Source: Deltaproteobacteria bacterium (GTDB taxonomy: Bacteria; SAR324; NAC60-12). From it: a stretch of DNA of 64,000 nucleotides. Below are positions 1-64,000 of this stretch, one piece after another; positions within the stretch are counted from its first letter, which is position 1; each line of letters begins with the position of its first letter. The stretch is from NCBI GenBank assembly GCA_038150265.1, contig JAYOTF010000011.1, positions 11,130 through 75,129 of the forward strand. The letters run 5' to 3'. The notes under the pieces were generated by a model. It was not told the origin of the DNA. It saw only the letters and a list, made by a program, of their open reading frames with translations, and made no database searches. The position numbers and the translations under genes were made by a program.

Positions 1-1394
1 GTGTCGGTAAACGCATCGTTGTTCCCCAGGTAAAACAGGTGCGTGGTGCGGCCCCTAGAGCCTTCCCGAGAAGCTCCTATATCCAGGTCAGCATCGTTCG
101 CCTCTTCCAGTGACACCAGGGGAGGATCTTGGGTCTGGCAATCGTTGTAAGGCAGGCACCCCGTCAGGTTGTCCTTGACGTGCCAAATCGCCGTTCCGCC
201 CAGATACGAAGAGCCGACCCCATTCTCACTGCTTCCGTCCAGCAGAATGCCAAGCCCGCGGTCGTAGCCTCCGGAGCTGCGGTTTTCCAGCAGAAAGTAT
301 TCATCTGAATTGGTTGTGGGAATCTTGTAGATGCCACAGGACGCATAAGCGGCGGGAAGCGTCGGGTTACTGGTTCCGGAAGGTACGGTTTGAGGAGAGC
401 AGACCCCCACCTGCTCCTTGGACCATGCCGAAAGGTGGACCGGTGTGGCGCCAGGTAAGTCCGTTGCGCTTTTTTGTCCCCAACTTCCGGCTCCCATCAA
501 CCCAAAATTGCCGATGCCTTCACAAACGCCACTGGTGCAGTAGAGGTCGGGATACCCGAAAAGCGCGTGCCCCAGTTCATGGGCAATGATGCCAATGGTG
601 GCATTGTAGGTCTCGCTGTCGCTGAACCCCTGGCGTTCTCCAAACTGCGAAAACCCGTTTTGAGCAGGAAGATCCGAGGCACCGGGATAGGCCTGAGCCG
701 GCCCCAACAGACGCACCTGGTCCAGGTACACGCCCCACTCGTTGGCCTCCGGATCTGAGTTGATGAATCCGTCGCCATCCTGGTCGCAGCTCATGCCGGT
801 TGCCATGCCCCATACGCCTCCGCCCGGCGTGCTGATGCCGGCTGCGCTTTCCCCCCCGGCCACAATGAACATGACCTGCAGTTCCTCAACTTCCAGGGCG
901 CCGCTTCCGTCTGAGTCGAAGCGTTGGAAGTCGACGGCCTCATCTGCCAGCTGAATGGCCCGGAAGGCGTAGTAGCTCCAGTCCAAATCCCCGGTATCCG
1001 GGTGATCAATGCGGTCAGTGACCGTCACCACGCCGTTATTGAGGAGGCCGCTGGACTCCGGTGCCGGGGAAAACTGAAGCTTGCCGTAGGTGGTTTCAGC
1101 AAAATACGAATTGAGCTGCCCTTCGGCTGTTCCAAAGATTTTGTCGGCCCAGACGGATTCATTATCCGTAAATTCCGCATTGGCGTACTGCACCCGGACG
1201 AGCAGCAACGGAATGGTCTTGGCCTCGCCACTCAGGTCCACCATGTCCGGCGGCGCTCCTCCGTAACACATGGGGGCGTCAACCGTTTCACCGGAGCCTC
1301 CACTGGAGCTGGTGCTGGAGCTGGTGCTGCACGCCGTTAACCACGTGGCCAGCCCCAGCAGCAGGCTGAAGAGGAGGAGGGGGATTGGTCTCAT
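1..1394 (-). CDS. M6 (immune inhibitor A-like) family zinc metalloprotease, predicted lipoprotein; 3' end lies beyond the left edge of the window
   Basis: Missing from the ORF track because it runs off the edge. Hand translation from ATG 1394 gives MRPIPLLLFSLLLGLATWLTAC (lipobox), an S/T/G linker, HELGHALFGYPDLY (HExxH at 567-581), GLMGAGSWG, HLSAWSK and EYFLLENR..GYDRGL..WHV, with no stop before base 1. Confidence 0.85.
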   Translation of the reverse strand, partial: MRPIPLLLFSLLLGLATWLTACSTSSSTSSSGGSGETVDAPMCYGGAPPDMVDLSGEAKTIPLLLVRVQYANAEFTDNESVWADKIFGTAEGQLNSYFAETTYGKLQFSPAPESSGLLNNGVVTVTDRIDHPDTGDLDWSYYAFRAIQLADEAVDFQRFDSDGSGALEVEELQVMFIVAGGESAAGISTPGGGVWGMATGMSCDQDGDGFINSDPEANEWGVYLDQVRLLGPAQAYPGASDLPAQNGFSQFGERQGFSDSETYNATIGIIAHELGHALFGYPDLYCTSGVCEGIGNFGLMGAGSWGQKSATDLPGATPVHLSAWSKEQVGVCSPQTVPSGTSNPTLPAAYASCGIYKIPTTNSDEYFLLENRSSGGYDRGLGILLDGSSENGVGSSYLGGTAIWHVKDNLTGCLPYNDCQTQDPPLVSLEEANDADLDIGASREGSRGRTTHLFYLGNNDAFTD

Positions 1395-1401
1395 CAGGGA
1401 C

Positions 1402-2475
1402 TCAGGCGACCTGCTGAACCCAACCAAAGGGGTCGGGCTCCTGGCCATACTGGATCGCCGTGAGGTGCTGGAAGAAGCGTTGGGCCACTGGTCCGGTCTC
1501 CCCACCGCCGACGATGTAATTCTCGTCCCGGTAGTTGAGCAGGCCGACAGGAGAGATGACCGCAGCGGTTCCGGAGCCAAACACCTCAGTGACAGAACCA
1601 TCCTGAATGCCCTTGACGACTTCATCAATGGCAATGCGACGTTCCACCACCTTCAGGCCCCAGTGGCGGGCCAGCTCCAGCACCGACATCCGGGTGATGC
1701 CCGGCAGGATCGTGCCGGTTAGCTGCGGCGTGTGCAGTTCACCGTTGAAGACGAAGAACAGGTTCATGGAGCCCACCTCCTCGACGTAGCGGCGTTCCAC
1801 CGCATCCAGCCAGAGCACCTGGGTGAACCCAGCAGCCTTGGCTTCCTTCTCAGCAAGGTTGCTCGCGGCGTAGTTTCCTGCCGTCTTGGCTTCCCCCACG
1901 CCTCCGGGAGCGGCGCGGACGTACTTTTCGGAGACGGTGATCTTGACCGGATTGAAGCCCTCGGCGTAGTACGGCCCAACGGGACAGGTGATGATGAAGA
2001 AGAGGTACTTCGAGGAAACCTTCAGGCCGAGAAACGGCTCCGTGGCAATCAGCGTCGGACGGATGTAAAGCGACGTCCCCGGCTCCTGCGGGATCCAGTT
2101 CCGGTCGGTCCGCAGCAGCTCCTCCAGGGCTCCCATCGTGAAGTCAATGTCGAGCTCCGGAAGGCACATCCGCTTTGCGGTCCGGTTCATGCGCTCAAAG
2201 TTCTGGCGCGGTCGAAACAGCAGGGTCTCCCCCTGAGCCCCCTGGTAGGCCTTGAGGCCTTCAAAGGCTTCCTGACCGTAGTGGAGGACCAACGTGGAGG
2301 GGCTCAGGCTCAGAGGGCCAAAGGGCTTGATCTCCGCGTTGTGCCACCCCTTCCCCGTCTCCCACTCCATCACGAACATGTGGTCCGTAAATACCGTCCC
2401 AAACACCACTCCACTCATGGTTGCAGGCGGGCTTTTACGCTGTTCGTGCGGGAGCACAGACTTCAGGAGTTCCAT
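1402..2475 (-). CDS. ilvE: branched-chain amino acid aminotransferase
   Basis: FTDHM, LHYGQEAFEGLKAY, YIRP, AKTAGNYA (PLP lysine), EEVGSMN, ILPGITR, GTAAVISPV. Confidence 0.95.
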   Translation of the reverse strand: MELLKSVLPHEQRKSPPATMSGVVFGTVFTDHMFVMEWETGKGWHNAEIKPFGPLSLSPSTLVLHYGQEAFEGLKAYQGAQGETLLFRPRQNFERMNRTAKRMCLPELDIDFTMGALEELLRTDRNWIPQEPGTSLYIRPTLIATEPFLGLKVSSKYLFFIITCPVGPYYAEGFNPVKITVSEKYVRAAPGGVGEAKTAGNYAASNLAEKEAKAAGFTQVLWLDAVERRYVEEVGSMNLFFVFNGELHTPQLTGTILPGITRMSVLELARHWGLKVVERRIAIDEVVKGIQDGSVTEVFGSGTAAVISPVGLLNYRDENYIVGGGETGPVAQRFFQHLTAIQYGQEPDPFGWVQQVA

Positions 2476-2497
2476 GGAGTTCCTTCCAACAGAGGGG

Positions 2498-2647
2498 TTA
2501 ACGCTGATTGAGATGGTTCATTTGACGGACAGCCAGGTGCTCCCGGACGGTCTCATAGTTCCAGACGAGGTACCCCAACAGGGCCCCCGAAATTCCCAGG
2601 ATGACCAAGGCCGAAAGCCAGACGATCCGATTCTTGAGCTGTAGCAT
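2498..2647 (-). CDS. small (49 aa) single-pass membrane protein
   Basis: Hand translation MLQLKNRIVWLSALVILGISGALLGYLVWNYETVREHLAVRQMNHLNQR*. It fills the gap upstream of ilvE, has one clear TM helix, and follows a TTGACT-N18-GATAAT promoter-like sequence. It is shorter than any ORF in the track. Confidence 0.55.
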   Translation of the reverse strand: MLQLKNRIVWLSALVILGISGALLGYLVWNYETVREHLAVRQMNHLNQR

Positions 2648-2731
2648 GGGAATGGCCAGAGCGAGGTTTGGATCTGCTCAGATTATCAGAAACCTGGCTT
2701 TGACAAGTCAAGCCGCGAGTAGAGGCGGGGC

Positions 2732-2824
2732 AGGGCATCAGGGGAGTGGGAGACGGGGATTCCGGAAAATGGGACACGCACCGCACTCCCCCCAGAATGA
2801 CGGTGCATGCCCCCCTGATGCCCT
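2732..2824. repeat. nested inverted-repeat element, CGTC-tagged REP-like
   Basis: The outer 13-bp IR AGGGCATCAGGGG (2732-2744) / CCCCTGATGCCCT (2812-2824) encloses GGATTCCGG (2757-2765) ... CCAGAATGACGG (2792-2803). Confidence 0.5.
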
Positions 2825-2837: not shown

Positions 2838-5684
2838 TCAGTCATGATCAGGCATCAGGTAATAGGCTTCTTCCACCGGCTTGAGCGGACGCTTGAACCA
2901 CAGGGGCCGTCTCAGGTTGTCTGGACCGGGAGCCGGGCGGGTCAGGTCGACCCACTTGCGGTAGACCTCCATGGACTTGTTGGTGTCCACAAACACGTCG
3001 CCATAGGCATCGCCTGGCTGCGCCTTCTCGATCCGGACCTTCTGGTGCCAGCAGTGCATGCCGCTGATGGGGTCCGGATGCACGGGGAAGGTGATGTTCT
3101 GATGCACCCCCCCATCTTCCCAGAAGATCCGCTGAGTATCCGGATCCTCGGTCTTGGAAGGCTGCACCCCTTCCTGAAAGCGCATCTTCCACTGGCCACC
3201 ACCGAGTTCTTCGATGTTGGCCAGGTTGGTGCCCCAGCGGTTGCCCTCCGGATCCTGACTCCGTCGCCAGCGTCCGAGGTGGTGGGAGCAGGCAATCACC
3301 CCCGGACGGATCGCCTCGGTCGCCCACAACCGGACCACAAAGAAGCCGATCTCGGTATTGACCCGGACCAGATCCCCCGTCTTCAGGTCAAGGCGCTGTG
3401 CATCCGAGGTGTGCATCCAGAGGGGGTTGCGGTTCGAGATCTCCATCAGCCACTTGGCATTGGCTGACCGTGAGTGGATCAACGTGGGCAGCCGGTAGGT
3501 GGGAACCAGGGGGAAGTCCCCGGCGGCTCGATCCATTTGCGACTCATGAATGTGGCTCTGGATGTAGCCTGGAAGGGTGTACTCCGGCCACTTCCAGTCC
3601 TTCATCGTCTTGGAGAAGATCTCCAGCTTGCGGGTGGGCGTGGGGAAGCCGGTGCGGCCCGAGCCTTCTGCCTCCACCCCAACGACTTTTCCATCCTGCC
3701 AGACCACTCCGTTCACCGGATTCCCCTCAACCGGCTTGCGGTACAGCTCATACAGCTCCTTGCTCACCTCATAGGCGCCGTGACGCTGCATGTACTCGAG
3801 AGCCGTCAGCCCTTCCTTCTCTGCGGCTTCCGGAAGCCCCGGGACTTCCTCGAAGATGTAGCGGTAGTACTCGTCAATGGTCATCTTCTCGCCCGGACGG
3901 TAGGGAGACTCGAAGTACTTGCGGATGCCGAGGGAGCCATCCGGATCGACCCGCCAGGAGAGTTCCATCCAGAACTCGTCTTCCTCCCACACCTCGCCGG
4001 GGTTGGCTTCATACGTAAACTGAACGGGCTTGCCCTGGCGACGCTGGTACTCCCGGAGGACGGGCTGCCGGAACCCGACCCACAGGCCGGAGTGCGTCTC
4101 GTAGCTGACCACGTCATGGCGCTCCGGAGAGTGTCCCATTGGCAGCACGTAGTCGGCAAAAAACGCGGTTTCGTTCCAGGTGGGCGTCAACGCGGCATGC
4201 AGCCCAATCATCGACTCATCCCGCAGCGCCTCAATCCAGGTAAAGCCATCCGGATACGTCCAGACCGGATTGAAGACCCGGGTGAAGTACACCGACATCT
4301 TGCCCCGTCCCTCCTTGAGGAAGTGCGGGAGCAGGAAGCTCATTTCGTAGTGACACAGGGGCCACTCCTGCGGAAAGTGCAGCTCGTTCCACACCTTGTG
4401 AGGCGGAGCCGGGTTGGGCACATGCGGATGGAACTTGCCCCAGGAGTTGGGGAGGGTGCCCCCCTTGGTGCCAACGCTTCCGGTGAGAACATTGAGGAAG
4501 TTGAGGCAGCGAGCGACCTGCCAGCCTCCCAGGTTGCCAACAGCCGCGCTGCGCCAGACGTGAGCCGAGAAGCGAGGGCCGGCGTTGCCGATGCGACGCG
4601 CCACCTCAATGACGTTGGCCGCCGGTACGCCCGACTCCTGCTCAGCAAATTCCGGGGTGTAGGACGCGTAATGCTCCTTGAGCTTCTCAACAAACACCTC
4701 AAACTCGTGCGGCTCATCCGGATGATCAGCCGCCATCCAGTCCTGCCAGTTGACCCACTCCCGCAGGAACGACTCGTTGTAGAGGCCTTCGTCCAGAATG
4801 ACCTTCGCCATGGCCAGCAGCACCGCCGGCTCGGTTCCGGGAGACGTCGGAAGCCAGTAGTCAGCCCGGCTTGCCGTGTTGGAGAGCCGAATGTCCATCA
4901 CCCCCACCTTGGCGCCGTTGTTCTTGGCCTCAATGATGCGCTGGGCGTGTGGATTGAAGTAGTGGCCGGCTTCCAGGTGGGAGCTGATGAGGAGGATGAA
5001 CTCTGCATTCGCATAGTCCGGAGACGGACGATCGGCTCCCCCCCAGAGCATGTACCCCAACCGGGCCGCTCCGGAGCAGATGTTGGTGTGGCTGTTGTGG
5101 CCATCGACCCCCCACGCGTTGAGGACGCGCTCAATGTATCCCTCGTGTCCTGGACGCCCGACGTGGTACACGACTTCATCGCGTTTTTCCGCCAAGAGGG
5201 CTTCCCGGATGCGCCCGGCGATGTCGTCCAGCACCGAGTCCCAGCTGACGCGTTCCCACTGTCCAGACCCGCGCTCCCCCTTGCGTTTCATGGGGTACAG
5301 CACCCGGTCCGGATCCTCCAGCTGGTTGATCGTCGCCGGCCCCTTCGCACAGTTGCGGCCTCGGCTTCCGGGGTGGTGCGGATTTCCTTCCAGCTTGCGC
5401 ACCTCGCCGGTGCGCTTGTCGATGTAGGCCAGCAGGCCACACCCGGCCTCGCAGTTGAAGCAAACGGTGGGGACCAGCGAGTACTCCTTCTTCTCCTTCC
5501 GGGCCCAGCCGGTGGCTTCATACTCGGTCCAGTGGTCCCACTTTTCATAAGGCGGGAAGTTCTTCAGGTCCGGGTCGTCTCCCGGAACCGCTTCCGGGCT
5601 GGGGTCCGCCGGCTTTTCCAGCTTCGGCAGCACGCCCATTTTTTCAGCGGTGGTTTCAATCCAAGACGGCTTAAACACAGGCAT
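2838..5684 (-). CDS. molybdopterin (bis-MGD) oxidoreductase catalytic subunit, Psr/Ttr/Arr-related, no Tat signal
   Basis: FS0 motif CFNCEAGC..NCAKG, RVLYPMKRKGERGSGQWERVSWD, HTNICS (probable Cys Mo ligand), ADYVLP, and a C-terminal dinucleotide-binding domain (LWMHTSDAQRLDLKTGDLVRV). Confidence 0.9.
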   Translation of the reverse strand: MPVFKPSWIETTAEKMGVLPKLEKPADPSPEAVPGDDPDLKNFPPYEKWDHWTEYEATGWARKEKKEYSLVPTVCFNCEAGCGLLAYIDKRTGEVRKLEGNPHHPGSRGRNCAKGPATINQLEDPDRVLYPMKRKGERGSGQWERVSWDSVLDDIAGRIREALLAEKRDEVVYHVGRPGHEGYIERVLNAWGVDGHNSHTNICSGAARLGYMLWGGADRPSPDYANAEFILLISSHLEAGHYFNPHAQRIIEAKNNGAKVGVMDIRLSNTASRADYWLPTSPGTEPAVLLAMAKVILDEGLYNESFLREWVNWQDWMAADHPDEPHEFEVFVEKLKEHYASYTPEFAEQESGVPAANVIEVARRIGNAGPRFSAHVWRSAAVGNLGGWQVARCLNFLNVLTGSVGTKGGTLPNSWGKFHPHVPNPAPPHKVWNELHFPQEWPLCHYEMSFLLPHFLKEGRGKMSVYFTRVFNPVWTYPDGFTWIEALRDESMIGLHAALTPTWNETAFFADYVLPMGHSPERHDVVSYETHSGLWVGFRQPVLREYQRRQGKPVQFTYEANPGEVWEEDEFWMELSWRVDPDGSLGIRKYFESPYRPGEKMTIDEYYRYIFEEVPGLPEAAEKEGLTALEYMQRHGAYEVSKELYELYRKPVEGNPVNGVVWQDGKVVGVEAEGSGRTGFPTPTRKLEIFSKTMKDWKWPEYTLPGYIQSHIHESQMDRAAGDFPLVPTYRLPTLIHSRSANAKWLMEISNRNPLWMHTSDAQRLDLKTGDLVRVNTEIGFFVVRLWATEAIRPGVIACSHHLGRWRRSQDPEGNRWGTNLANIEELGGGQWKMRFQEGVQPSKTEDPDTQRIFWEDGGVHQNITFPVHPDPISGMHCWHQKVRIEKAQPGDAYGDVFVDTNKSMEVYRKWVDLTRPAPGPDNLRRPLWFKRPLKPVEEAYYLMPDHD

Positions 5685-10219: not shown

Positions 10220-10726
10220 CTAAAACGCCTCAGGGCAGTAGTGCGCGTCAATCGGCGCTCCGGCGCCAGAGACCTCTGGGCCAATTGGGCTCCAGCGCCG
10301 GTCTGGGCTCGCCAGAAAGGCAGCAAAATCGGCAGGCACGGATTCGGGCTCAATCCGGGTCACCCGCTCCAGGTCACACTCATACAGCCGGTACTGAACG
10401 ATCCACCCCTGGTCCACATCAAGCGCCTGGAGCTGGGCCAGTTGAAAACGCCGGGGCGGTGTTCCAGCCAGCTCCAGGCTCCGGGAAACACGAGGATTGT
10501 CAAAGATGAGGCGGGTGACCGGCTGAAAGAAGAGGTGGGCCACATTGTAGAGGTCGGGCTCCCGGATCTCCTGCAGCTCCACAAACTGCGGATGCTGCGC
10601 CTCCACGATCTGGCGCATCTGCTCTCCCCACTGCAAGCTGGTCCGGATGGCATACCCCCACCCCAGCACAATGAGGAGCAGGCTCACCACCTGAACGCGA
10701 CGGTTGGAGAAGAGCCGGCGGATCAT
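10220..10726 (-). CDS. hypothetical protein with N-terminal membrane anchor
   Basis: 168-aa ORF with a 4-nt overlap to the channel gene stop and an N-terminal hydrophobic helix. Confidence 0.6.
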   Translation of the reverse strand: MIRRLFSNRRVQVVSLLLIVLGWGYAIRTSLQWGEQMRQIVEAQHPQFVELQEIREPDLYNVAHLFFQPVTRLIFDNPRVSRSLELAGTPPRRFQLAQLQALDVDQGWIVQYRLYECDLERVTRIEPESVPADFAAFLASPDRRWSPIGPEVSGAGAPIDAHYCPEAF

Positions 10727-15170: not shown

Positions 15171-15282
15171 GGGTTCAGCGCGGGAAAGAGGGTTGATTCA
15201 GGATTGGAGAAAAGTTCTCAGGTCTGGGCAGGGTGAGGACTCTAAAATTAAGGCCCTTTTCTAGCGAAACCATTCCGGATAA

Positions 15283-21059: not shown

Positions 21060-21174
21060 CCCCGAGCCACGACCGTAGCTTGCTCTCAGTGCGGGAATCC
21101 CGCACAATGCACGGTTCGCACAGTGACCCTCGCACAACACCATCCAGAATTTCCTGTTTCTTCCGTTTCCACTC

Positions 21175-24723: not shown

Positions 24724-24732
24724 CCTCCGCTG

Positions 24733-25392: not shown

Positions 25393-25435
25393 ACGCCACC
25401 CACCTCAAGAAATGCAACGGGTCCCGAAATGAGGC

Positions 25436-25464: not shown

Positions 25465-25515
25465 CTCGAAATCTCAGGGCGTCCCCGAGGCGTCGGATTT
25501 CAACAGAGAGCCCTC

Positions 25516-26526: not shown

Positions 26527-26563
26527 GCCCCGGATTCCGCTTCCCCTTTGCAGGAGATTGTTC

Positions 26564-27034: not shown

Positions 27035-28930
27035 ATGAGCTCCTTCTCCTTCTCGGCACGCGTCACCTCCGCCCAGCAGCTGGCCTGTACGCTCCGCAAC
27101 CACAGCTCAGCGGCCTACCAGGGGTTTCAGCTTGGCCTCAGCCTGGTCACCGGCGGGGTGGCGGTTTCCGGATGTCGCCTCACGCGTCAGGTGGGAGGCT
27201 ACTGCGAGGTCGCTCCCGAGCCAGAGGGTCCCCTTGCTCCCGGAGCCACATGGGAGTTTGTCCTGGCCTACCACGAGGCGGGTTACGTCCCCTTCAACCA
27301 GTCGTGGGGACCACAAGGCGTCCACCTCCTCACAGCGCAAGGAGAGGCCCTTCCGGTGGAAGCCCACCCCCTCGAGTTTCCGGACGTGCCCCCGTTTCCG
27401 CAGCTGGACGTGACTCCAGAGGCTCCCGAGCTTCCTCTGATTCCGCATCCGGAATCCTGGAAGCCGACGGGCACAACCTGCTCGCTTGCTTCCGGAATCA
27501 CCGTGCTGGAGCCGCTTCCGTTTCCCGACGTTCCGGAGGCCGTGGACGCGCTCGCTCGACGGTGCGGGTTCTCCCCCCTGCAGGCGAGTTCCCCTTCCGC
27601 CTGCCCGCTGACGCTGCACCAGGATGCCTCGCTCGGTCTGGAGGCCTACTGGCTTGAGATTCACCCGGATCGGCTGGAACTCGGCGCCTCCGGACGCACG
27701 GGCGCGCTGTATGGCGGGCTCACCCTGCTGCAGTTGGCCGAAGCGACCCACCGGAGCCTGCCCTGCGGGCGCCTGGAAGACCAACCTCGGTTTTCGTGGC
27801 GTGGGCAGCACCTCGATTGCGCCCGGCACTTCTACGAAGTCGACACCCTCCTTCGGGTGCTGGACCTGATGGCCCTGCTCAAGCTCAACCGCTTCCACTG
27901 GCACCTGATTGATGATGAGGCCTTTCGGTTGGAGCTCGAGGGCTTTCCCGAGCTGGCCGCCCAGACTTCTGCGCGGGGGCATGGCTGTGTGGTGCCCGGC
28001 GTGTTTGGCGGCGGCGCCGGTCCCACCGGAAGGGCCTACTCGGCGGCCGACGTCGAGCGGGTCCGGCAGCACGCCCAGACGCTCGGCATTGAAGTGATGC
28101 CGGAGGTGGAGATTCCCGCCCACGCCTGGGCGCTCCTGCAGGTGTTTCCCGAGCTGCGGGATCCGGAAGACACCAGCCACGAGGTGTCGGTGCAGTGTTA
28201 CGCGGAAAACGCGATCAACCCGGGACGCGCAGAAACCTGGCGGTTTTTGGAGAAGCTGCTTCCGGAAGTGCACCAGCTCTTCCCGGATGGCTGGATTCAT
28301 CTGGGATGCGACGAGTTGCCGCCCGGGACCTGGGAGCGCTCTCCGGCGGTTGCACGACTCAAGGCCGAACACGGCCTGCACACCACCGAAGATGTTCAGG
28401 AGTGGACCATGCAGCGTGCGGCCGCCCTGCTCCAAAAAGCCGGGGCGCGGGTGGCGGCCTGGGAAGAAGCGGCCCGCGGGCAGCACGGAGGCATCGGTCC
28501 GGACACCCTGCTGTTTTCCTGGACGGGACAGGGGCCCGGACTTGATGCCGCCCGCCGCGGGTATTCCGTGGTGATGTGTCCGGCTCCGCACACCTACTTC
28601 GACCTGGCCCAGACCGCTCATCCTTCGGGGCGAGGCATCAACTGGGCGGGGACCGTGGGGCTTCGGGACGCCCTGGAGTGGCAGCCGGTTCCTCCGGAGG
28701 AGCCTGAGCTGGAAGCCCGCATTCAGGGCGTGCAGGGGCAGCTCTGGTCAGAGACCATTCTGGACGATCGCATGGTGGAGGCCCTGCTGGCCCCCCGGAT
28801 TCTGGCCCTGGCCGAAGTGGCCTGGTGTCCGGAAGCACGCAAGCGGGCGTTCCCGGAGTTTGTGGGAGCCGCCCAGGCGTTTTTACCCTTACTTTCCAAG
28901 ATGAACTGGGAGTCTCACCCCCTCGTCTGA
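27035..28930 (+). CDS. beta-N-acetylhexosaminidase (GH20), no signal peptide
   Basis: DQPRFSWRGQHLDCARHF, KLNRFHWHL, PEVEIPAH, catalytic HLGCDE, GVQGQLWSE, PRILALAEVAW. Confidence 0.92.
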   Translation: MSSFSFSARVTSAQQLACTLRNHSSAAYQGFQLGLSLVTGGVAVSGCRLTRQVGGYCEVAPEPEGPLAPGATWEFVLAYHEAGYVPFNQSWGPQGVHLLTAQGEALPVEAHPLEFPDVPPFPQLDVTPEAPELPLIPHPESWKPTGTTCSLASGITVLEPLPFPDVPEAVDALARRCGFSPLQASSPSACPLTLHQDASLGLEAYWLEIHPDRLELGASGRTGALYGGLTLLQLAEATHRSLPCGRLEDQPRFSWRGQHLDCARHFYEVDTLLRVLDLMALLKLNRFHWHLIDDEAFRLELEGFPELAAQTSARGHGCVVPGVFGGGAGPTGRAYSAADVERVRQHAQTLGIEVMPEVEIPAHAWALLQVFPELRDPEDTSHEVSVQCYAENAINPGRAETWRFLEKLLPEVHQLFPDGWIHLGCDELPPGTWERSPAVARLKAEHGLHTTEDVQEWTMQRAAALLQKAGARVAAWEEAARGQHGGIGPDTLLFSWTGQGPGLDAARRGYSVVMCPAPHTYFDLAQTAHPSGRGINWAGTVGLRDALEWQPVPPEEPELEARIQGVQGQLWSETILDDRMVEALLAPRILALAEVAWCPEARKRAFPEFVGAAQAFLPLLSKMNWESHPLV

Positions 28931-29880: not shown

Positions 29881-29882
29881 CC

Positions 29883-32080: not shown

Positions 32081-32112
32081 AAGCTTCCGGAGCCTCCTGG
32101 TTCCGGGGGCTT
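32081..32112 (+). terminator. intercistronic stem-loop after the binding-protein gene
   Basis: AAGCTTCCGGAGCC-tcct-GGTTCCGGGGGCTT, a 14-bp stem with G-U pairs and no strong U tract. Confidence 0.5.
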
Positions 32113-40269: not shown

Positions 40270-40389
40270 TGTCAATCTCCTGAAGCGGGAGGTTTCAAGG
40301 AGCGCACTGACGGGGGAGCGAGCCAGAAGCGATTCCCAGAATGATGAGCCTGGGGACAGGCTCGGACAGGTGCCTTGCGGCACAAAAAC

Positions 40390-40899
40390 TCATGGAGGCG
40401 GCAAAAGGAGCTTCTCCAGTCGCAGGTGGGTGATCTGGATCTGTTCCGCTGCTGCGGTGCCCAGCTCCTGCTGGCGATCCGATCCCAGCCGCGCGGTGAG
40501 GAGGGTCAGCAGCTCCGTCGCTGATTTTCCGGAGGCACAGACGATGTAGATGAAGCCGAACTTCTGTTCATACTCGGCATTCTTCAAGGCCATCTCCGCC
40601 TTGATCCGTTCATCAGCACTCTGCATGCCTGCCTGCTCTCGGGAGGTCCAGGAGGCGGTGTTTTGTGCCACCTCCGGAGGCTTGCTGGCGCCAATGCGAG
40701 GGTGTGCCGCAAAGGCCTCCAGCCAGTCGGCTTCTTCCATCTGCTGCCAAACGGCCTCCGCTTGCTCGTGCAGGGCCTCGGCGCTGGCAAAGGGCCGGCA
40801 CGCCAGCATGCCAGCCACCCAGCGCTGCGCTCCGCAGCACTTCTGCAGCGCTTCCGCACAGGCGGCGTCCGGAAGCGCGTTCAGTTCCTCAATCGTCAT
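40390..40899 (-). CDS. uraD: OHCU decarboxylase
   Basis: EAFAAHPRIG, SREQAG, YEQKFGFIYIVCASG, EQIQITHLRL. Confidence 0.92.
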   Translation of the reverse strand: MTIEELNALPDAACAEALQKCCGAQRWVAGMLACRPFASAEALHEQAEAVWQQMEEADWLEAFAAHPRIGASKPPEVAQNTASWTSREQAGMQSADERIKAEMALKNAEYEQKFGFIYIVCASGKSATELLTLLTARLGSDRQQELGTAAAEQIQITHLRLEKLLLPPP

Positions 40900-42323
40900 C
40901 AGTTTCGTCGTGCCTCTACAATTTTCCGGAAGGACCCGGCCTGGATTTCTTCCACTGTCACGCCAGCGGCTTCCACATCTTCCGGATCAATGGCCCCGGA
41001 ATTCAGGGCTCGGAAGAAGAAGTTCAGCAGCCCCTGTCCGGTGGCCGCATCATCAAAGACGTCTCCACTCAGGGTCGCCTTGGACGCCTGTTCCACAAAG
41101 TTCCTCAGCCGGGTGGTCGACTCCTGAACCTGCTCCAGGAAGAACGCCGCACACGCCGCATACCGTACGGGAATTTGCGCCGGATGCAAGTCCCATCCCT
41201 GATAAAATCCATGAGCCAGGGAGCGCCGGACGTGTCCGTAGCTGAGCCGCCACGCTCGGTGGACGGTCTCCAGGTTTTCCCGGACCTGCACCGGCGACAG
41301 GGAGTCTCCCCGGTGTGGCGCCACGGGCATGATGTTCGTTGCGCCGTCGGACAGAAAGATTCCCGTGCCACCAAACGCCACCTTCATGACGTGCCGAGCG
41401 AAGTCACACACGGCACTGTCCATCTTCTGGTAGGCGGCAATGAGGTCGCAGGACGCGGTGTAGTCGTAGGTCCCGAAGTGTGCCCCAATGCAGCGACCGC
41501 GCGCCGCGTTGGCAATCTTCCGGGCGGTGACTTCTCCGTTCGCATTGAAGACCGACTGCGTGGTCTCGATCATCACTTCCATCTTCAGGGTCCCCGGGGC
41601 CAGGCCCTTTTCGGCTTCAAACACCTCAAACAGCTCCACCAGCGCCGCGGCTTGCTCCGGAACCTCCACCTTCGGCAGCGTCACCACAAAGTTTTCCGGA
41701 AGCGCCCCTCCGGATTCTTCCAGCAGCGTGCTGAGGAACAGGTCCAGCGTCCGGATGCCCCGGTCGGAAAACTCGCGGTTGAACGGCTTGATGCGGATGC
41801 CAATGAAGGGGGGCAAGAGGCCCTGCTTCATGCCAGAGACCACCTCCTTGGCGCCCTGCACCGCAACGGCGTCTTCCTCCTCATCCGGACGGATGCCGAA
41901 GCCATCTTCGTAGTCGAGCCGGAAGTCTTCCACCGCCTCGCGTTCCAGCTTCTTGACCACCTGGGCATACACGCGCCACGCCAGCCACACCGGTTGATTG
42001 GCCGGAGAAACGCCCCGGTCTTCGACATCCTGCACCAGGGCTTCTACCTCGCTCTGGCGGGTCGGCAGCGTCTCGGCTCCAGCAAGTCCGAGCGCCTGCG
42101 CAAACACAACAAAGTTTGGAGCGTAGTCCTGCAGATTCCGGATGGCAAGTGTTCCCATCTTGGCGGCCAATTCCGCCTTGAAGAGGTGGGCGCCTCCGTA
42201 GATCGTGTGCACCGGTTGGCGGGCGAGGGACTTGCCCGGGTAGTCGAGGTTGAACTGCTGGTTGGCTTCAGACAGACGGCTCAGCGTGGAGCCAATGCGT
42301 TCGGGAGTAAGCGTTCGCGTCAT
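40899..42323 (-). CDS. HpcH/HpaI aldolase / citrate-lyase-beta-like protein (DUF6986-type, from recall)
   Basis: RQPVHTIYGGA, EDFRLDYEDGFG, GIRIK, VTLPKV, EVMIET, HFGTYDYTA, LSDGATNIMP, GFYQGWDLHPAQ; ATG 42323. Confidence 0.75.
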   Translation of the reverse strand: MTRTLTPERIGSTLSRLSEANQQFNLDYPGKSLARQPVHTIYGGAHLFKAELAAKMGTLAIRNLQDYAPNFVVFAQALGLAGAETLPTRQSEVEALVQDVEDRGVSPANQPVWLAWRVYAQVVKKLEREAVEDFRLDYEDGFGIRPDEEEDAVAVQGAKEVVSGMKQGLLPPFIGIRIKPFNREFSDRGIRTLDLFLSTLLEESGGALPENFVVTLPKVEVPEQAAALVELFEVFEAEKGLAPGTLKMEVMIETTQSVFNANGEVTARKIANAARGRCIGAHFGTYDYTASCDLIAAYQKMDSAVCDFARHVMKVAFGGTGIFLSDGATNIMPVAPHRGDSLSPVQVRENLETVHRAWRLSYGHVRRSLAHGFYQGWDLHPAQIPVRYAACAAFFLEQVQESTTRLRNFVEQASKATLSGDVFDDAATGQGLLNFFFRALNSGAIDPEDVEAAGVTVEEIQAGSFRKIVEARRN

Positions 42324-42348
42324 AACAGTCTCGGTTGGGAAAAAAGAG

Positions 42349-43362
42349 TTAAATGGCCTTGGTGCCAAGGATGCGCAAGCGACTGACCCCCCCATCTGGG
42401 TAGATGCTGAGGCGGATGTGCGTCACGGGGCCGAGCTCCTCGAGCTCTTCCTCAAAGAAGTGCTGGGCATCGGCCTCCAGCTTCACTTCCGTGAGCAGGG
42501 GCCTCCACGGCAGGTCTGCCGCCTCCCAGCTCTCGGGGTTCATGCCCTCCGGAAGGTTGAGGGCTTCCAGGCTGCAGCGGTCCGGGTAGTTGCCCTTGAA
42601 GTGGGCGGTGTCGACTTCCACTTTCTGGACAAACCCGGCACAGGCGAGGCGGAGGATGGCCCAGTCGTTTCCGGGTTCGCGGCGCCGGCGGGTTTCCCAA
42701 CCGTCTCCCATGTTGATGCCGCGTCCGGGAGCCACCAGGTTGTCCATGTGCCCAAAGTGCTGGTCGTTGCAGGCGAGGGCCTTGCCTCCGAGGCGGGACG
42801 ACGCCAGGTCGATCACCTCGTCCAGGCCAATGGCCTTCCAGTCCACCGAAGGTTCCCCATACACCCGCAGGCGCGCCACGCCTCCGTCGGGGTAGATGTG
42901 CAGGCGGATGTGGGTCCAGCGCTGGGAGTTCTTGATCTCAAAGAAGTTTTGGGTGTTCCCCTCCAGTGGCGACTTGGGGAGCAGCTCCGTCCAGGTGGTC
43001 GACTCATCCGGATCGCCCGCAAGCTCACAGGCTTCAACCGAAGCAAACGGAGGGAAGTTCCCCGTGAAGTGATTGGTGTCAATGTCGAGCGCATGGATGC
43101 GTCCGGGCGCGCCCAGGCGGAGGGTGCACCAGTCGTGTCCGGGAGTGCGCTTGCGGCGTGACTCCCAGCCATCCATCCACTTGCCGTGGTCATCAAACTT
43201 TCCCGGAATGAAGATGCCCCGTCCGGGCTTGATGAGGTTTTCCTTGGCGGCAAAGAAGTCATCCGTGGCATCCAGCACGACCGTATCCAGCCGCTCTTCG
43301 GCCAGGTTGAGGAAGCGTTGGGAGTAGCGATCGTCGTGCGGGTTTTCAATAAAGAGTTCCAT
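42349..43362 (-). CDS. alc: allantoicase
   Basis: Two repeats: WMDGWESRRKR..DIDTNHFTGN..IYPDGGVARLR and MGDGWETRRRR..VDTAHFKGN..IYPDGGVSRLR. Confidence 0.95.
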   Translation of the reverse strand: MELFIENPHDDRYSQRFLNLAEERLDTVVLDATDDFFAAKENLIKPGRGIFIPGKFDDHGKWMDGWESRRKRTPGHDWCTLRLGAPGRIHALDIDTNHFTGNFPPFASVEACELAGDPDESTTWTELLPKSPLEGNTQNFFEIKNSQRWTHIRLHIYPDGGVARLRVYGEPSVDWKAIGLDEVIDLASSRLGGKALACNDQHFGHMDNLVAPGRGINMGDGWETRRRREPGNDWAILRLACAGFVQKVEVDTAHFKGNYPDRCSLEALNLPEGMNPESWEAADLPWRPLLTEVKLEADAQHFFEEELEELGPVTHIRLSIYPDGGVSRLRILGTKAI

Positions 43363-45101: not shown

Positions 45102-45238
45102 GAGAGTGTCCTTTCTGGTTGAGAGTAAAAAAAGCTGTGAGGAGAGTATCCGCAATCGTTCCTGACGTGCAACTAAAATTGCGTCCGGACGAGGCCACGT
45201 CTCCTCACCCCCTGAACCACCCTTAACGAGTGACTGCT

Positions 45239-46435: not shown

Positions 46436-46978
46436 ATGACCATGCCTCCGGAAATCCACTACCGCGCTGATGCGGCCTTCACGACAGAAGACGATGCCCA
46501 GCTCCGGCACCTGCTCACCACCTGCTTCACCAAGCCGCAGGACCAGATCTTTCAGCAGCAGCGCTACTTCCGGGAGCCCTATGCGCACCGCTGGGTGATC
46601 CCCGGACCACCCCCAACGCTTTGGGCGCACGTGGGCCTGCACCTGAAGGAGGTCCGGACTCGAGAGCAGGGGTTTCCGATTGGGGGAATCTGTGAGGTCT
46701 GCGTCCATCCGGAGGTTCGGGGACGCGGCTACGTTCGGGAAATGCTCAAGGTCGTGCACGCCTGGGAAGCCGCAGCAGGCCTGCCCTTTTCCCTGCTCTT
46801 TGGAGAGCCCTCGGTGTATCAGTCCAGCGGCTACCGAGAGGTCCGGAACCTGGTGTACCACCCGCAGGGCGGAGCGTGGACGGAAGAAGCGGTGGTGCCC
46901 TTGCCGGTGATGGTCCGGACTTTGGGGGAGCAACCGTGGCCCGAGGAGACCGTGTTTCTCCCCGGACCCAAGTTTTAG
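46436..46978 (+). CDS. GNAT-family N-acetyltransferase
   Basis: GICEVCVHPEVRGRGY (acetyl-CoA binding motif A) and VYQSSGY. Confidence 0.8.
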   Translation: MTMPPEIHYRADAAFTTEDDAQLRHLLTTCFTKPQDQIFQQQRYFREPYAHRWVIPGPPPTLWAHVGLHLKEVRTREQGFPIGGICEVCVHPEVRGRGYVREMLKVVHAWEAAAGLPFSLLFGEPSVYQSSGYREVRNLVYHPQGGAWTEEAVVPLPVMVRTLGEQPWPEETVFLPGPKF

Positions 46979-52776: not shown

Positions 52777-52887
52777 CGGAAAAACACGGCTGGCTCATGA
52801 CAGGGTCAGCCGGATCTGATACGGTTGCGTCTGGTGCGTCCCGGCACCTTCCTCAAGCCCTTCACCTTATTTGTCCATGGAACCGAA

Positions 52888-55800: not shown

Positions 55801-57105
55801 GATGACATGGGGTTGGGAAAAACCGTGCAGGCCATTGCATCGATGCTTGAGCGGGCTCCGCAGGGTCCGGCCCTGGTCCTGGCCCCGGCCTCGGTGGCCA
55901 TCAACTGGACCCGGGAAATTGAAAAATTTGCTCCCACCCTCAGGCCCGTGCTGCTCGCCTCAGAAAACCGTCAGCAGGTTGTGCAGGAAGCGGGCGCCTT
56001 CGACGTCATCATCAGCAGCTACGGCCTGTTGCCTCAGGAAACCGAAACGCTGTGCAGCCGACGCTGGCGGACCCTGGTGCTTGATGAGGCGCAGGCCATC
56101 AAGAACGCGGCCACCAAGCGCTCTCAGTCGGTGATGAAGCTGGAGGCCGACTTCCGCATTGCCACCACCGGCACGCCTCTGGAAAACCACCTGGGCGAGC
56201 TGTGGAACCTGTTCCGCTTCCTGAACCCCGGCCTGCTGGGGTCTCGGGAACGCTTCCAGGAGCGCTTTGCCGGCCCGATTGAACGGGACCACGATGCAGA
56301 AACCCGGCAGCGCCTCCGCAAGCTGATCCGCCCCTTCATCCTCCGGCGCCTCAAGCACGAGGTGCTGGACGAACTTCCGCCCAAAACCGAGATTGTCCTC
56401 ACCGTTGAGCTCAGCCCCGAGGAGCGGGTGTTTTATGAAGCGCTGCGGCAAAAGGCCCTTGAGGACCTTGAGAACACCTCCCAGCAACCTCCCGGCGCCC
56501 GAAATCTGCAGATCCTTGCCGAAATCACACGGCTCCGCCGAGCCTGCTGCCACCCGAAACTCGTGCTTCCGGAGACGCGGCTTCCGGGCTCAAAGCTGAC
56601 CCTGTTTCAGGAGGTCCTCGGGGAGCTGCTGGCCAACCGGCACAAGGTCCTGGTCTTCAGCCAGTTTGTGGCCCACCTCGACATTCTGAGGGAGCACCTT
56701 CAGCAACACTCCATTGCTTATCAGTACCTTGACGGAAGCACGCCTCAGAAGCAGCGGCAGCAGGCCATTGATGCCTTTCAGAAGGGAGAGGGAGAGGTGT
56801 TTCTCATCAGCCTCAAGGCGGGAGGAACCGGCCTGAACCTGACGGCAGCCGATTATGTGATTCACATGGACCCCTGGTGGAACCCGGCAGTGGAGGATCA
56901 GGCTTCCGATCGGGCCCACCGCATGGGGCAGGAGCGCCCGGTGACGATCTACCGGTTAGTCACTCAGGGAACCATTGAGGAGCAGATCGTCAGCCTCCAC
57001 CATGAAAAGCGGGACCTTGCCAACAGCCTCCTCGAGGGCAGCGACCGTCTCCATCGCCTCTCTCCGGAAGCCCTCCTGCAGCTCCTCAAGGAGGATCCGG
57101 CGTGA
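52888..57105 (+). CDS. SNF2-family helicase/ATPase with a long N-terminal region including a TPR-like segment
   Basis: LRDYQQEG, LADDMGLGKT, LDEAQAIKN, TGTPLENHLGELW, LVFSQF, LISLKAGGTGLNL, DPWWNPAVEDQASDRAHRMGQ; start uncertain. Confidence 0.93.
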   Translation: MTLRLPALIGNKSTIEKQLNALSLVQKELLVNLMLVNESISKSNLFAKMSTVLFSEDTRNRTKLYKAWEQLERDGWFQRGEFNKQALLTPFARGAARVIGRSHPDLAKASALYRKHRQSHWGWWATQYHLDLDDSEERWLLGDPEGIEALLNKLEAGPSQATKPSKERDEEIEALLSKLSTDPIQSIKRDEEVDEELRLEIEINVMELLLNPWIPEQFSQLSVPHQFRMLHMALNSFVTLEFPVAQEVFEYAESLLHHVSSGGAILAGSLAIVYLRQGRWEQANALLNALPQDHFTYWQGRGTLEFMRGNYAEALDAYQQGFPLFNRGIRGRKHPLPGLAGNLMPLAMIGADPEKGIDAAVGFLQKLALTGRPFLKTLQSNLTATVPKLTDRDMEPDISARWLNLFLGYWSGDTQKRPYLSDPLLQTFQAHQFVWDLSQLVHLQHATKEPPFTSPRGFAKHGFGNLTELRPKEEEWERTLKTLSAFGKARSVSATRKTQQKRLAWVIDIRGEGITPVAQILNKSGNWTGGRAVALKRLKNGLPFMEEQDYQVASQVREYHHYYGAREYELPFEKAIPLLVGHPLLFQTGATELPLELVAGTPELLVQETAKGYQIKFPYQLKSDSSVVLQKETPTRYRVISFSQEQLDLLGAVEQKSVTIPLAGKEKLTQALENLSPIISITSPLGIGEEDLPEVPPSTRIHAHLLPLGEGLRLELLVRPLGDGGPYTQPGRGSTLWIGEVDQERKRTKRSLKKEQQEYNRVLAQAPLLSEWPHEQGEWRFEAPEDCLEILQELQELGEQVQVEWPEGQKLKLSRLVDFENLALRIKRHRDWFQVEGELRLSDEQTLSLQVLLNHLKQRRGRFVPIGDQEFLTLTDQFRKRLEELDAFTERSGNQLRLPDFAAPALEDWVESVGALEADPSWKERLNKLRDAQSLNPAVPSTLRAQLRDYQQEGFTWLTRLAHWDAGACLADDMGLGKTVQAIASMLERAPQGPALVLAPASVAINWTREIEKFAPTLRPVLLASENRQQVVQEAGAFDVIISSYGLLPQETETLCSRRWRTLVLDEAQAIKNAATKRSQSVMKLEADFRIATTGTPLENHLGELWNLFRFLNPGLLGSRERFQERFAGPIERDHDAETRQRLRKLIRPFILRRLKHEVLDELPPKTEIVLTVELSPEERVFYEALRQKALEDLENTSQQPPGARNLQILAEITRLRRACCHPKLVLPETRLPGSKLTLFQEVLGELLANRHKVLVFSQFVAHLDILREHLQQHSIAYQYLDGSTPQKQRQQAIDAFQKGEGEVFLISLKAGGTGLNLTAADYVIHMDPWWNPAVEDQASDRAHRMGQERPVTIYRLVTQGTIEEQIVSLHHEKRDLANSLLEGSDRLHRLSPEALLQLLKEDPA

Positions 57106-57132
57106 AGCACCGACTCCGGACCGCAGATGCCA

Positions 57133-57660
57133 TCAATTACTGGAGGTGAAGTACGAGGTGAACAGCTGCGGGTCCAGCGTGCCGGAGTAGGCATACAGCT
57201 CCGGACCCTTGTCAAGAAGCCGGATGCTCAGCTCTAACGCACCGCCCGAAGCGAAGTGTTCCTTCATCTCAGACATGTGCCGCTGGAAGGCCCTGCGGTA
57301 AGCCTCCGGGTTGAAGGTCCGATTGAGAAACACGTTGTACAGCTCCGGATCTCGAAACGCAGGCAGCAACGCATCTCCTCGATCGTTTGCCACGAACGGA
57401 TAGGTTTTTGCCTCCCCATCGAAGGAAATCTGTACCTCGTAGTGCGCTCCCGGCTCAAAGGTTTCCTCCTGACGGTGCCCCACCAAGTAGGAAAAGCCCT
57501 TGAATGCGGCCAAATAGTACCCGTCACTGAGACTCGCATAAAGAAACTCCTTGGTCTGCTGCGTCTGCGGGTCCTGACGCTTGTACACCTCCCACTTTGC
57601 ATTCTGTGCCCAGAGCAAGGTGGGCACGCTCAGTAGGAGCACCAATATTCCCTTCCACAT
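57133..57660 (-). CDS. hypothetical secreted protein
   Basis: Signal peptide MWKGILVLLLSVPTLLWA/Q; upstream AAAGGGGA RBS. Confidence 0.75.
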   Translation of the reverse strand: MWKGILVLLLSVPTLLWAQNAKWEVYKRQDPQTQQTKEFLYASLSDGYYLAAFKGFSYLVGHRQEETFEPGAHYEVQISFDGEAKTYPFVANDRGDALLPAFRDPELYNVFLNRTFNPEAYRRAFQRHMSEMKEHFASGGALELSIRLLDKGPELYAYSGTLDPQLFTSYFTSSN

Positions 57661-63214: not shown

Positions 63215-63243
63215 CGCTTTCCTTCACTTCATTGAGATGGTTG

Positions 63244-63834
63244 ATGATTCCCCAACACCTCACGCTTCGGCTCCCTGACTGGGTGGCCGGCTTTATTGCT
63301 GAATTCACCTTCCCGCTGGCTTCCAACGAGGAGCGCATGCGCTTCGTGCTGGCCCTGACGGAACGCAACATCCGGGAGCAAACAGGAGGGCCCTTTGGCG
63401 CCGCTGTCTTTGAGCGAGTTTCCGGAAACCTGGTGTCAGTCGGCGTGAACGTGGTGGTCGCACAAGGCTGCTCAGCAGCACATGCTGAAATGATGGCCCT
63501 GATGCTGGCGCAACAGCAGTGCGGGAGCTTCGACCTCGCGGCCGAGTCCCTTCCGGACCATCAGTTGGTGACCAGCGGGAAGATGTGTGCCATGTGCCTG
63601 GGGAACGTCTGCTGGTCGGGAGTCAAAGAGGTGGTCTCTGCCGCTGAGCCTGAGGATGTGGAGTCGCTGACGGGCTTCGATGAAGGCCCCACACCTGCGG
63701 ACTACAATGCTCAGCTGGAACGCCGGGGCATCCGCATCCTTCCGGAGGTGCTGCGGGAAGAAGGCCGCCGGGTGCTGCAGCTTTATGTGGAACAGGGAGG
63801 CACCATCTACAACCCGGCCCGCGCGACCTCCTGA
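63244..63834 (+). CDS. zinc-dependent nucleoside/guanine deaminase-family protein
   Basis: GGPFGAAVF, AHAE, CAMC, GFDEG. Confidence 0.85.
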   Translation: MIPQHLTLRLPDWVAGFIAEFTFPLASNEERMRFVLALTERNIREQTGGPFGAAVFERVSGNLVSVGVNVVVAQGCSAAHAEMMALMLAQQQCGSFDLAAESLPDHQLVTSGKMCAMCLGNVCWSGVKEVVSAAEPEDVESLTGFDEGPTPADYNAQLERRGIRILPEVLREEGRRVLQLYVEQGGTIYNPARATS

Positions 63835-63948
63835 GCCACGCGGCTCCTGCCCCAGGCTGCGGCTGGCTTCCCAGCCTTGCAGGGCAATCGCATGAAACAA
63901 ATGGCTGGACGAATGGGCTTGGCGGTTGGTGCGGACTGCCGCTTCGTG

Positions 63949-63975
63949 GTCATCCCAGCGCAGGCTGGGATCCAG
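63949..63975 (+). repeat. REP-like palindrome (GTCAT..-type)
   Basis: GTC-ATCCCAGC-GCAG-GCTGGGAT-CCAG. The window ends in ..TCGATTC, which may be the start of an inverted second copy. Confidence 0.6.
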
Positions 63976-64000
63976 TCTGTGAACCGAGTGCCGTCGATTC

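Follow-up and report, generated by a model that had tools for sequence, protein, structure and literature searches.

Highly iterated palindromes (HIPs) are a puzzle of cyanobacterial genomes that has been open for three decades. Elsewhere in bacteria, the DNA uptake sequences (DUS) of Neisseria and the uptake signal sequences (USS) of the Pasteurellaceae are asymmetric words of 9-12 nt that occur in thousands of copies in genes and spacers, and Dcm/Vsr very-short-patch repair shapes the frequencies of CCWGG in E. coli, its effect being small and limited to one base. Among proteins that bind short palindromes, SeqA acts on paired GATC sites and the lambda repressor is cooperative at whole helical turns. 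Here we describe the palindrome TCCGGA in a 64-kb stretch of DNA from an uncultured bacterium of the SAR324 lineage (contig JAYOTF010000011.1, positions 11,130 to 75,129; G000:C11:11130-75129), which we call the window, and in its source assembly, G000 (3.39 Mb in 87 contigs, the largest of 214 kb; 97.78% complete). An earlier note on this DNA had proposed that TCCGGA is an analogue of the cyanobacterial HIP1. We find that it is kept at very high density by a lineage-specific process acting on DNA, and that neighboring copies stand in a helical register that differs between lineages.

HIP1 (GCGATCGC) and the alternate HIPs (GGCGCC, GCCGGC/rCCGGy, and GCsGC) are the closest known kind (PMC4390886, PMC5861425). 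The second reports a periodicity of ~39 kb for HIP1 in one strain, with sites conserved between genomes (PMC5861425), and a 2026 paper connects HIP1 with type IV secretion and with uptake (PMC13756078). By the criteria of Elhai 2015, a genome with a HIP should encode a methyltransferase that recognizes the word or its core, and one-letter deviants should lie mostly at the outer positions; TCCGGA is absent from the text of that paper (PMC4390886). Like the HIPs, TCCGGA is a GC-rich palindrome that lies far above expectation in all frames and in spacers, is lineage-specific but not universal within the clade, and outlasts control words between close genomes. Unlike HIP1, it has six letters rather than eight, occurs roughly three times as densely (1 per 343 bp vs ~1 per 1000), and has a period of 10.5 bp with a genus-specific register where the period reported for HIP1 is tens of kb. 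It further departs from the HIPs in that no matching C5 methyltransferase was found in G000 and its positions are not conserved between genera. The proposed likeness holds, then, for abundance and for lineage-specific upkeep at the DNA level, and fails for long-term positional conservation and for the 10.5-bp phasing.

The other systems offer partial likenesses. As with DUS and USS, there are thousands of evenly spread copies, apparently kept up by drive or weak selection rather than by site-specific function; unlike those words, TCCGGA has a core of exactly six palindromic bases and no asymmetric core of 9-12 nt, and we know of no helical register for DUS or USS. With Dcm/Vsr it shares a sequence-specific fixation bias that alters the genome-wide frequency of a word, although neither PF00145 nor PF03852 was found in G000. 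In the model proposed below, it would resemble the sites of SeqA and the lambda repressor, with a dimer on a short palindrome and sites that interact at certain angles over a few turns; it differs from them in its half-turn register, and SeqA was not found in G000. To our knowledge, no system of the SeqA or lambda type is reported to have left an excess of a word across a genome. Among the listings returned by a literature search there was no report on TCCGGA abundance in bacteria.

Abundance of TCCGGA beyond composition and coding

TCCGGA is found 190 times over the whole length of the window, or about once per 337 bp. Composition predicts 21.2 copies, and 100 dinucleotide-preserving shuffles of the window gave a mean of 23.65 (standard deviation 5.08, maximum 37), none of them reaching 190. 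The earlier estimate of about one expected copy per 3 kb is thus sound, although the GC content is 61.9% rather than the ~65% given with it. Other palindromes of the window remain far below TCCGGA (GGCGCC 75, CTGCAG 73, ACCGGT 14), and no GC-matched palindrome is comparably enriched in either window or genome. Across G000 the word is first by count among all 4096 hexamers, with 9711 copies or about 1 per 343 bp, and the next two, TTCCGG (5574) and CCGGAG (5468), overlap it. Its observed/expected (O/E) ratio is 8.69 under a mononucleotide model, 7.57 under a dinucleotide model, 2.39 at third order, and 1.22 at fourth order; the fourth-order Markov ratio (1.22-1.29 for window and genome) stays low, since the enrichment is already present in the pentamers TCCGG and CCGGA.

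The 18 one-letter variants of the word have 341-4124 copies each in G000, with dinucleotide O/E ratios of 1.41-2.35 for outer and 0.85-2.13 for inner changes, and the near-identical words CCCGGA and TCCGGG are 2.4-2.5 times rarer than TCCGGA. Flanking positions carry at most 0.08 bits each, with a weak symmetric preference (gcT-TCCGGA-Agc) that is alike in genes and non-coding DNA; the longer consensus that the earlier note had suggested looking for is therefore ruled out, and there is no word longer than TCCGGA itself.

Gaps between copies are exponentially distributed (mean 343 bp, coefficient of variation 0.98) except below ~50 bp. Motif-free islands were rejected, as the longest gaps (3.6, 3.5, and 3.3 kb) fit a Poisson expectation and lie in ordinary genes; an Rfam scan of the five regions with the longest TCCGGA-free stretches returned one tRNA and no other family.

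Genes were called with a self-trained codon model (2764 genes, 87.5% of G000). Seven of eight calls checked in the window carried Pfam domains in the called frame, and five long open reading frames (ORFs) opposite called genes carried none. TCCGGA has a density of 2.92/kb in genes and 2.41/kb in non-coding DNA, where 1024 copies compare with 133 expected from composition (7.7x). In genes without N, shuffling synonymous codons within each gene left 2074 ± 50 copies vs 8639 observed, and this ratio of 4.2 is the highest among hexamers with an expectation of at least 50. All three codon phases contribute (2022, 2379, and 4238 copies in phases 0, 1, and 2 vs shuffle means of 520, 731, and 823, or 3.9x, 3.3x, and 5.1x), and 41% of the protein-permissive coding places hold the word (8639/21036). 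Occupancy is unrelated to GC at third codon positions (r = 0.07, 1836 genes) and amounts to 26% over the initial 60 nt of a gene vs 43-44% downstream of that. The form xxT-CCG is taken at 4238 of 8713 places before a codon starting with GA (48.6%) vs 6.7-25.6% before the 15 other beginnings.

Could the excess nevertheless be a by-product that follows simply from base composition, from the amino acids encoded, or from a preference for certain codons or codon pairs? The fourth-order Markov ratio of just 1.22 would fit such an origin, as would the fact that TCC, CCG, CGG, and GGA are each common codons. However, a dicodon-preserving model falls short of the observed counts by 1.35x in phase 1 (2379 vs 1768) and by 1.60x in phase 2 (4238 vs 2646). 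TCC-GGA is used at 4.18x its expectation from codon usage, which places it fourth among 2675 codon pairs, and six of the seven other biases among the top eight are xxT-CCG pieces of the motif; with seven of the eight strongest biases deriving from it, TCCGGA distorts codon-pair statistics. Relatives with the same proteins are not enriched (1.17x by composition in a sample of G014), and neither the non-coding enrichment nor the synonymous shuffles fit a by-product, so that it has next to no chance of being correct. Composition and codon explanations are excluded, and the upkeep of TCCGGA is a DNA-level, lineage-specific process and not a codon preference; the earlier note had already doubted a single codon preference, given the occurrence of the word in all phases and between genes.

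Helical register of neighboring copies

Distances between copies in G000 peak at 9, 19, 31, 42, 51, 62, 72, 85, 94, and 105 bp. Phasing was tested as co-occupancy among protein-permissive places, a conditioning under which protein sequence cannot contribute. Co-occupancy has a period of 10.53 ± 0.03 bp that decays over ~200 bp, and at 11-17 bp it drops to 0.16-0.32 of expectation. Compared with 200 within-gene shuffles of occupancy, the phasing has z = 21 and none of the 200 reaches the observed power, and the permissive places themselves show no 10.5-bp period. The power is 63.8 for TCCGGA, and none of the 14 control word sets, equally common ones among them, exceeds 7.9. True sites are partly phased with the outer one-letter variants (15.6) and not with the inner ones (2.0).

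The register extends across gene borders: for 1575 pairs of copies in different genes or in non-coding DNA the best period is 10.5 bp (power 9.8). It therefore needs the geometry of double-stranded DNA, which argues for a protein. There is no 10.5-bp A/T periodicity around TCCGGA sites, and the signal is therefore one from site to site rather than a wrapping code.

Relatives of G000 (numbered G001 onward, with genera g2 to g12) differ in register. In a 1.16-Mb sample of G013 (2667 copies), the period is 10.4-10.5 bp (power 16.3, amplitude 0.93) and the peaks lie at 9, 27, 37, 48, 59, and 68 bp, corresponding to half-integer turns; the distances of 30-35 and 40-43 bp, at which G000 peaks, are nearly empty. 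We then compared the 33, later 22, most enriched genomes, picked by enrichment and not by spacing, most of which rest on five distance windows (20-23, 30-33, 36-39, 40-43, and 46-49 bp); pairs at 30-33 and 40-43 bp were counted as whole-turn and those at 36-39 and 46-49 bp as half-turn. Seventeen of the 22 genomes favor whole turns (15 at p<0.05), with whole:half counts of 277:167 in G000, 268:40 in G018, and 95:7 in G052, and five favor half turns and all but exclude whole ones. All 12 genomes of g11 prefer whole turns, each at p<0.05 and with ratios of 1.8 to 13.6, and in g4 whole turns are higher in 3/3 genomes (ratios 1.3 to 3.9), two of them at p<0.05 and the third, G061, at 25:19 (p=0.45). 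On the half-turn side are the three genomes of g12 (G013 25:181, G062 16:127, G063 2:67), together with G011 (9:22) and G001 (73:161), the last in the same GTDB genus as G000 and of opposite register. When pair counts are divided by computed Poisson expectations, g11 genomes reach 1.4-5.9x at two turns, 2-9x at three, and 1.2-3.6x at four, and g12 genomes 0.00-0.21x at whole turns. The spacers listed for TCCGGA pairs are unrelated sequences and do not form a repeat family. The register is inherited by lineage, alike within g11, g4, and g12.

These observations bear on the idea of an intrinsic DNA-mechanics code, in which TCCGGA would be bent or flexible and phased for curvature or supercoiling without a specific protein. 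The 10.5-bp period and a range of ~200 bp, near the stiffness length of DNA, are what it would predict. Yet the physics is constant and the register is not: G000 and G002 (149:119, p = 0.08) stand opposite G001 within one GTDB genus. The rarity of CCCGGA and TCCGGG and the lack of A/T periodicity near sites also speak against it. Because the register is passed on within genera and varies among them, plain DNA mechanics is excluded and a lineage-specific protein is indicated; an intrinsic code has only the slightest likelihood.

Two features of pairs and flanks were seen in g11 genomes of lower GC content (G018, G052, G042, and others): up to ~7% of TCCGGA copies lie in pairs 30-33 bp apart, and many copies read TTCCGGAA or ATCCGGA.

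Relatives, site turnover, and gene inventory

Over a set of 88 genomes, whole-genome counts of TCCGGA were compared with those of the reversed word AGGCCT; kin are not independent, and sizes other than that of G000 are rounded. The enrichment is graded across the family, with TCCGGA/AGGCCT counts of 8293/2133 and 7726/1548 in the genus of G000 itself, 7675/254 in G013, up to 5316/226 in g11, and 4063/483 in g4. There is no excess in nine g2 genomes (e.g. 812/840), nor in g5, g8, and g9. By composition, the O/E ratios of samples are 7.7x in G001 and 8.0x in G013, compared with the 1.17x of G014, and TCCGGA is the top hexamer in the G013 sample too, at 56.8% GC.

Within the same class, TCCGGA is depleted relative to AGGCCT in G067 and G068 and in the sister family f7 (G081 and G083-G087, with 15-267 copies vs 1435-1882). 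A depletion specific to TCCGGA was rejected for these sister lineages: a 234-kb sample of G087 (loci L128-L141) is short of many other 6-bp palindromes as well (TCCGGA 0, GTCGAC 0, GTATAC 1, CTCGAG 2, GTGCAC 2), and we therefore regard this as a general avoidance of palindromes and not as the mirror image of the TCCGGA trait. In the same lineages GCCGGC shows no strong depletion and TCCAGA no excess. At G084:C5:127578-131510 (L118) an HpaII-type restriction endonuclease adjoins a C5 methyltransferase; the four C5 methyltransferases found there are only 28-32% identical among themselves. Restriction-site avoidance, which depletes a word, does not describe G000, where TCCGGA is enriched.

Turnover of sites was followed in orthologues, defined as best blastp pairs that span 70% or more of the protein in G000. 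For G000 and G002, 281 such pairs were kept (80% identity or higher, mean 90.5%), and four-fold sites have an identity of 0.51. Among the places that could hold the word in both genomes, G002 had it at 334/621 of those occupied in G000 and at 151/891 of those not occupied there. In a stationary two-state model, a codon pair that completes TCCGGA is lost 0.50x as fast in phase 2 (bootstrap confidence interval (CI) 0.38-0.65) and 0.39x as fast in phase 1 (CI 0.26-0.58) as the same pair where it does not complete the word; for gain, the corresponding factors are 1.98x and 1.47x. Slower loss together with faster gain means that there is no one-sided surge of site-creating mutation, and the enrichment behaves like a fixation bias, that is, selection or biased conversion. 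At this close range, the memory of TCCGGA is 0.25-0.47 vs 0.14-0.27 for controls.

Profile searches of G000 found no match to the C5 methyltransferase family PF00145 or to Vsr (PF03852), which matched in 9/14 and 3/14 control genomes, nor to N6_Mtase (PF02384), MutH, SeqA, or a histone fold, for which the controls matched as expected. The methylation machinery covered by these searches was accordingly set aside, and two methyltransferase-like genes that do occur in G000 do not follow the trait across relatives. One of the two lies at G000:C45:1404-5096 (L001), where a 469-aa ORF with an RVT_1 reverse transcriptase, a 258-aa PF01555 methyltransferase, and a 311-aa ORF that belongs to no known family are arranged head to tail. 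The methyltransferase has its sole full-length relative in G001 (71% identity), and it was rejected as a 'writer' of TCCGGA on this ground. This reverse-transcriptase island holds TCCGGA at 7x and is therefore no recent arrival. The other, which we call the SPPY gene (G000:C51:248-1384; L002:248-1387), encodes 379 aa with an Arg/Asp-rich repeat in an N-terminal extension, and was alone in matching PF02086 in G000, weakly. Its motif I (DPFMGGGT) precedes SPPY, an order permuted with respect to the solved N4-cytosine DNA methyltransferases that are its best solved relatives (8s9n, E 1.7e-5). It is present as a single copy in 25/31 genomes searched, G000 included, with identity that tracks kinship; its occurrence in the non-enriched G003, G014, and G006 led us to reject it as the determinant of the trait. 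Genes shared by the samples of G001 and G013 (12% and 34% of those genomes) and missing in G000 were considered as candidate readers and discarded: the top hits make up an operon with amidohydrolase, peptide-transporter, and CobW genes, the small ORFs matched no protein family, and the two loci with these ORFs gave no Rfam match.

The main rival to a protein reader, and one that we consider unlikely, is a neutral drive in which site-specific repair or conversion would resolve near-cognate mismatches towards TCCGGA, the abundance itself having no function. Slower loss and raised gain would be expected of it, as would a Poisson scatter, binomial occupancy, and positions that are not conserved between genera. 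The wide distribution of the SPPY gene, a putative methyltransferase by its nearest solved relatives, could also be enlisted, and one paper describes CCGG-core alternate HIPs (rCCGGy/GCCGGC) with a matching methyltransferase in a cyanobacterium (PMC4390886). To produce phasing, the drive would need a dimer-of-dimers enzyme that requires another cognate site at a defined angle around the helix. Type IIE and IIF restriction enzymes do work as dimers of dimers that need a second cognate site, and Elhai's HIP ratchet is reportedly a methylation-linked drive; a Vsr-like activity is another form that the drive might take. However, we know of no repair drive that yields a helical register, and count this against the idea. 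The negative searches in G000 for C5 methyltransferases, Vsr, N6_Mtase, MutH, and SeqA tell against it too, as do the presence of the SPPY gene in non-enriched genomes and the restriction of the PF01555 relative to G001. The deamination neighbors TCTGGA and TCCAGA are not depleted (O/E 1.5), and at discordant sites the third base of CCG shows 28 transitions vs 44 transversions.

A signal for uptake or recombination, gathered by biased uptake of own-species DNA, seems improbable. The even spread over genes and spacers would suit it, ComEC is present in G000, and HIP1 has been linked to transformation in recent work (PMC13756078; bioRxiv 10.1101/2024.09.10.611283). But a 6-bp palindrome discriminates little, ComEC is near-universal (matched in 10/14 control genomes), and uptake gives no reason for the 10.5-bp register, the exclusion at 11-17 bp, or the flip of register between genera. 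Uptake and DNA mechanics both fit less well than a protein or a drive.

Within the window, 174 of the 190 copies are inside called genes and 16 are not fully within one. Each coordinate listed in the earlier note reads TCCGGA, and its local counts agree with ours. The GH20 glycoside hydrolase gene (27035..28930, + strand; PF00728, PF02838) has 11 copies, in phases 0 and 2 (27167, 27379, 27448, 27491, 27532, 27689, 28162, 28261, 28498, 28693, and 28828), vs no ACCGGT. The five copies within 41656-41889 (41656, 41695, 41709, 41750, and 41884) belong to a DUF6986/malate-synthase-like gene (40899..42395, - strand; PF22484, E 2.6e-173), and five more (46447, 46653, 46708, 46842, and 46914) to a GNAT acetyltransferase gene (46436..46978, + strand). 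All three codon phases are represented, as had been noted, with 27167 in phase 0, 46653 in phase 1, and 27379 in phase 2. The five copies described as intergenic do lie outside called genes: at 2761..2766; at 15274..15279, between a gene end at 15170 and a gene start at 15283; at 32086..32091, between genes 30838-32058 and 32128-33258; at 45184..45189, between the divergent genes 44196-45155 (-) and 45230-46435 (+); and at 57115..57120, between the convergent genes 52825-57105 (+) and 57133-57660 (-). One pair, 3032/3073 (span 3032..3078), is separated by 41 bp or four helical turns, and six more fall at 40-43 bp: 7972/8014, 27448/27491 and 27491/27532 (43 and 41 bp, both in the GH20 gene), 34672/34714, 41709/41750, and 52570/52612. 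These seven compare with a Poisson expectation of ~2.3, and there are none at 30-33 bp, one at 36-39, and two at 46-49.

Other features of the window may be mentioned. The segment 38950-46435 resembles a purine-breakdown neighborhood, with a xanthine/uracil permease (38950-40383, -), the DUF6986/malate-synthase-like gene already mentioned, and a protein with a urate oxidase N-terminal domain (45230-46435, +). The gene at 52825-57105 (+) encodes a 1426-aa SNF2-family helicase with an N-terminal extension of ~950 residues, in which matches to TPR are weak and below threshold, and that at 10723-13227 (-) encodes an 834-aa protein combining an ion-channel pore, TrkA/RCK domains, a Sel1 repeat, and a TerB-like C-terminus. 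Parts of the window DNA occur in 20 public runs, all stored as assembled contigs, with labels such as estuary, aquatic, mangrove, and salt-marsh; for 21001-31000, at least half of the sampled words occur in six runs from three studies of estuary and aquatic metagenomes, with smaller shares in mangrove, salt-marsh, wastewater, and seawater runs.

A putative reader of TCCGGA

The reading that we tentatively prefer, at a little under an even chance, is weak genome-wide selection for the sites of a putative dimeric DNA-binding protein that contacts its neighbors. TCCGGA would be the preferred site of an abundant, two-fold symmetric, sequence-specific protein of nucleoid type, and each copy would confer a small advantage wherever it is located. 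Selection would act through synonymous codon choice in genes and through free change between them, and occupancy would settle near 40%, in an equilibrium with steady turnover. Bound dimers might touch or sense one another, such that a new copy within ~200 bp would be favored or not according to its angle, and the contact geometry would be a property of the protein that has changed in evolution, some genera using whole turns and others half turns. The exact six-base specificity counts in favor of a DNA-binding protein, and the evidence leans to one that reads DNA because the helical phasing has a genus-specific register. Of the systems suggested in the earlier note, nucleoid organization is thus the one towards which the phasing points, and the link to methylation found no support in the searches for C5 methyltransferases, Vsr, and MutH.

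Several observations weigh against selection for reader sites. We infer the protein as cause, its dimeric state, and selection rather than biased conversion; no candidate protein was found, and these data do not distinguish selection from biased conversion. Copies are Poisson-distributed at large scale (variance/mean 1.04 in 1-kb bins), occupancy is binomial across 1836 genes (chi2/df 1.02), and dense arrays or operators were rejected, there being one place in the genome with at least five copies in 150 bp. Positions are not kept between genera, by the comparison of orthologues that the earlier note had suggested. In long-range sets of 279 pairs with G001 (~70% identity) and 268 with G013 (~60%), co-occupancy relative to independence is 1.21 and 1.14, and in phase 2, the largest class, it is 0.99 and 0.94, with a memory of -0.01 and -0.03; the small excess in phases 0 and 1 is not separable from heterogeneity between places. 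A neutral drive predicts the Poisson scatter, the binomial occupancy, the scarcity of arrays, and the positional turnover equally well, and it accounts as well for the kinetics of a fixation bias. The register of G002 is only a trend (p = 0.08), phasing in non-coding DNA alone is not significant (555 pairs, power 3.1, the pairs being few), and a half-turn preference at 27-59 bp is an unusual form for cooperative binding. Finally, gene calls come from our own crude caller, although most of those checked carried Pfam domains.

A bolder version of the reader model, which is possible though we are more doubtful of it, is that a protein reads ~10,000 TCCGGA sites per genome, couples neighboring ones by way of helix geometry, and has switched between same-face and opposite-face arrangements, in a chromosome-reading system without precedent to date. 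The contrast in register offers a clean comparison for gene hunting, between the whole-turn group (G000/G002, g11, and g4) and the half-turn group (G001, g12, and G011), and TCCGGA is in any case a strong signature for binning and host assignment in these lineages. The same kind of phenomenon as in cyanobacteria is now seen in an unrelated, uncultured lineage, SAR324, with two handles that HIP1 does not provide, a helical register and its difference between genera. If a paired-site repair drive were responsible, it would be a new route by which neutral processes write structure into genomes; a reader protein, if there is one, would represent a novel class of nucleoid organizer with sequence specificity. 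Should the bolder version hold, the genome sequence of these bacteria would record the shape of a protein complex, and a layer of bacterial chromatin would be encoded in it for which no counterpart has been described.

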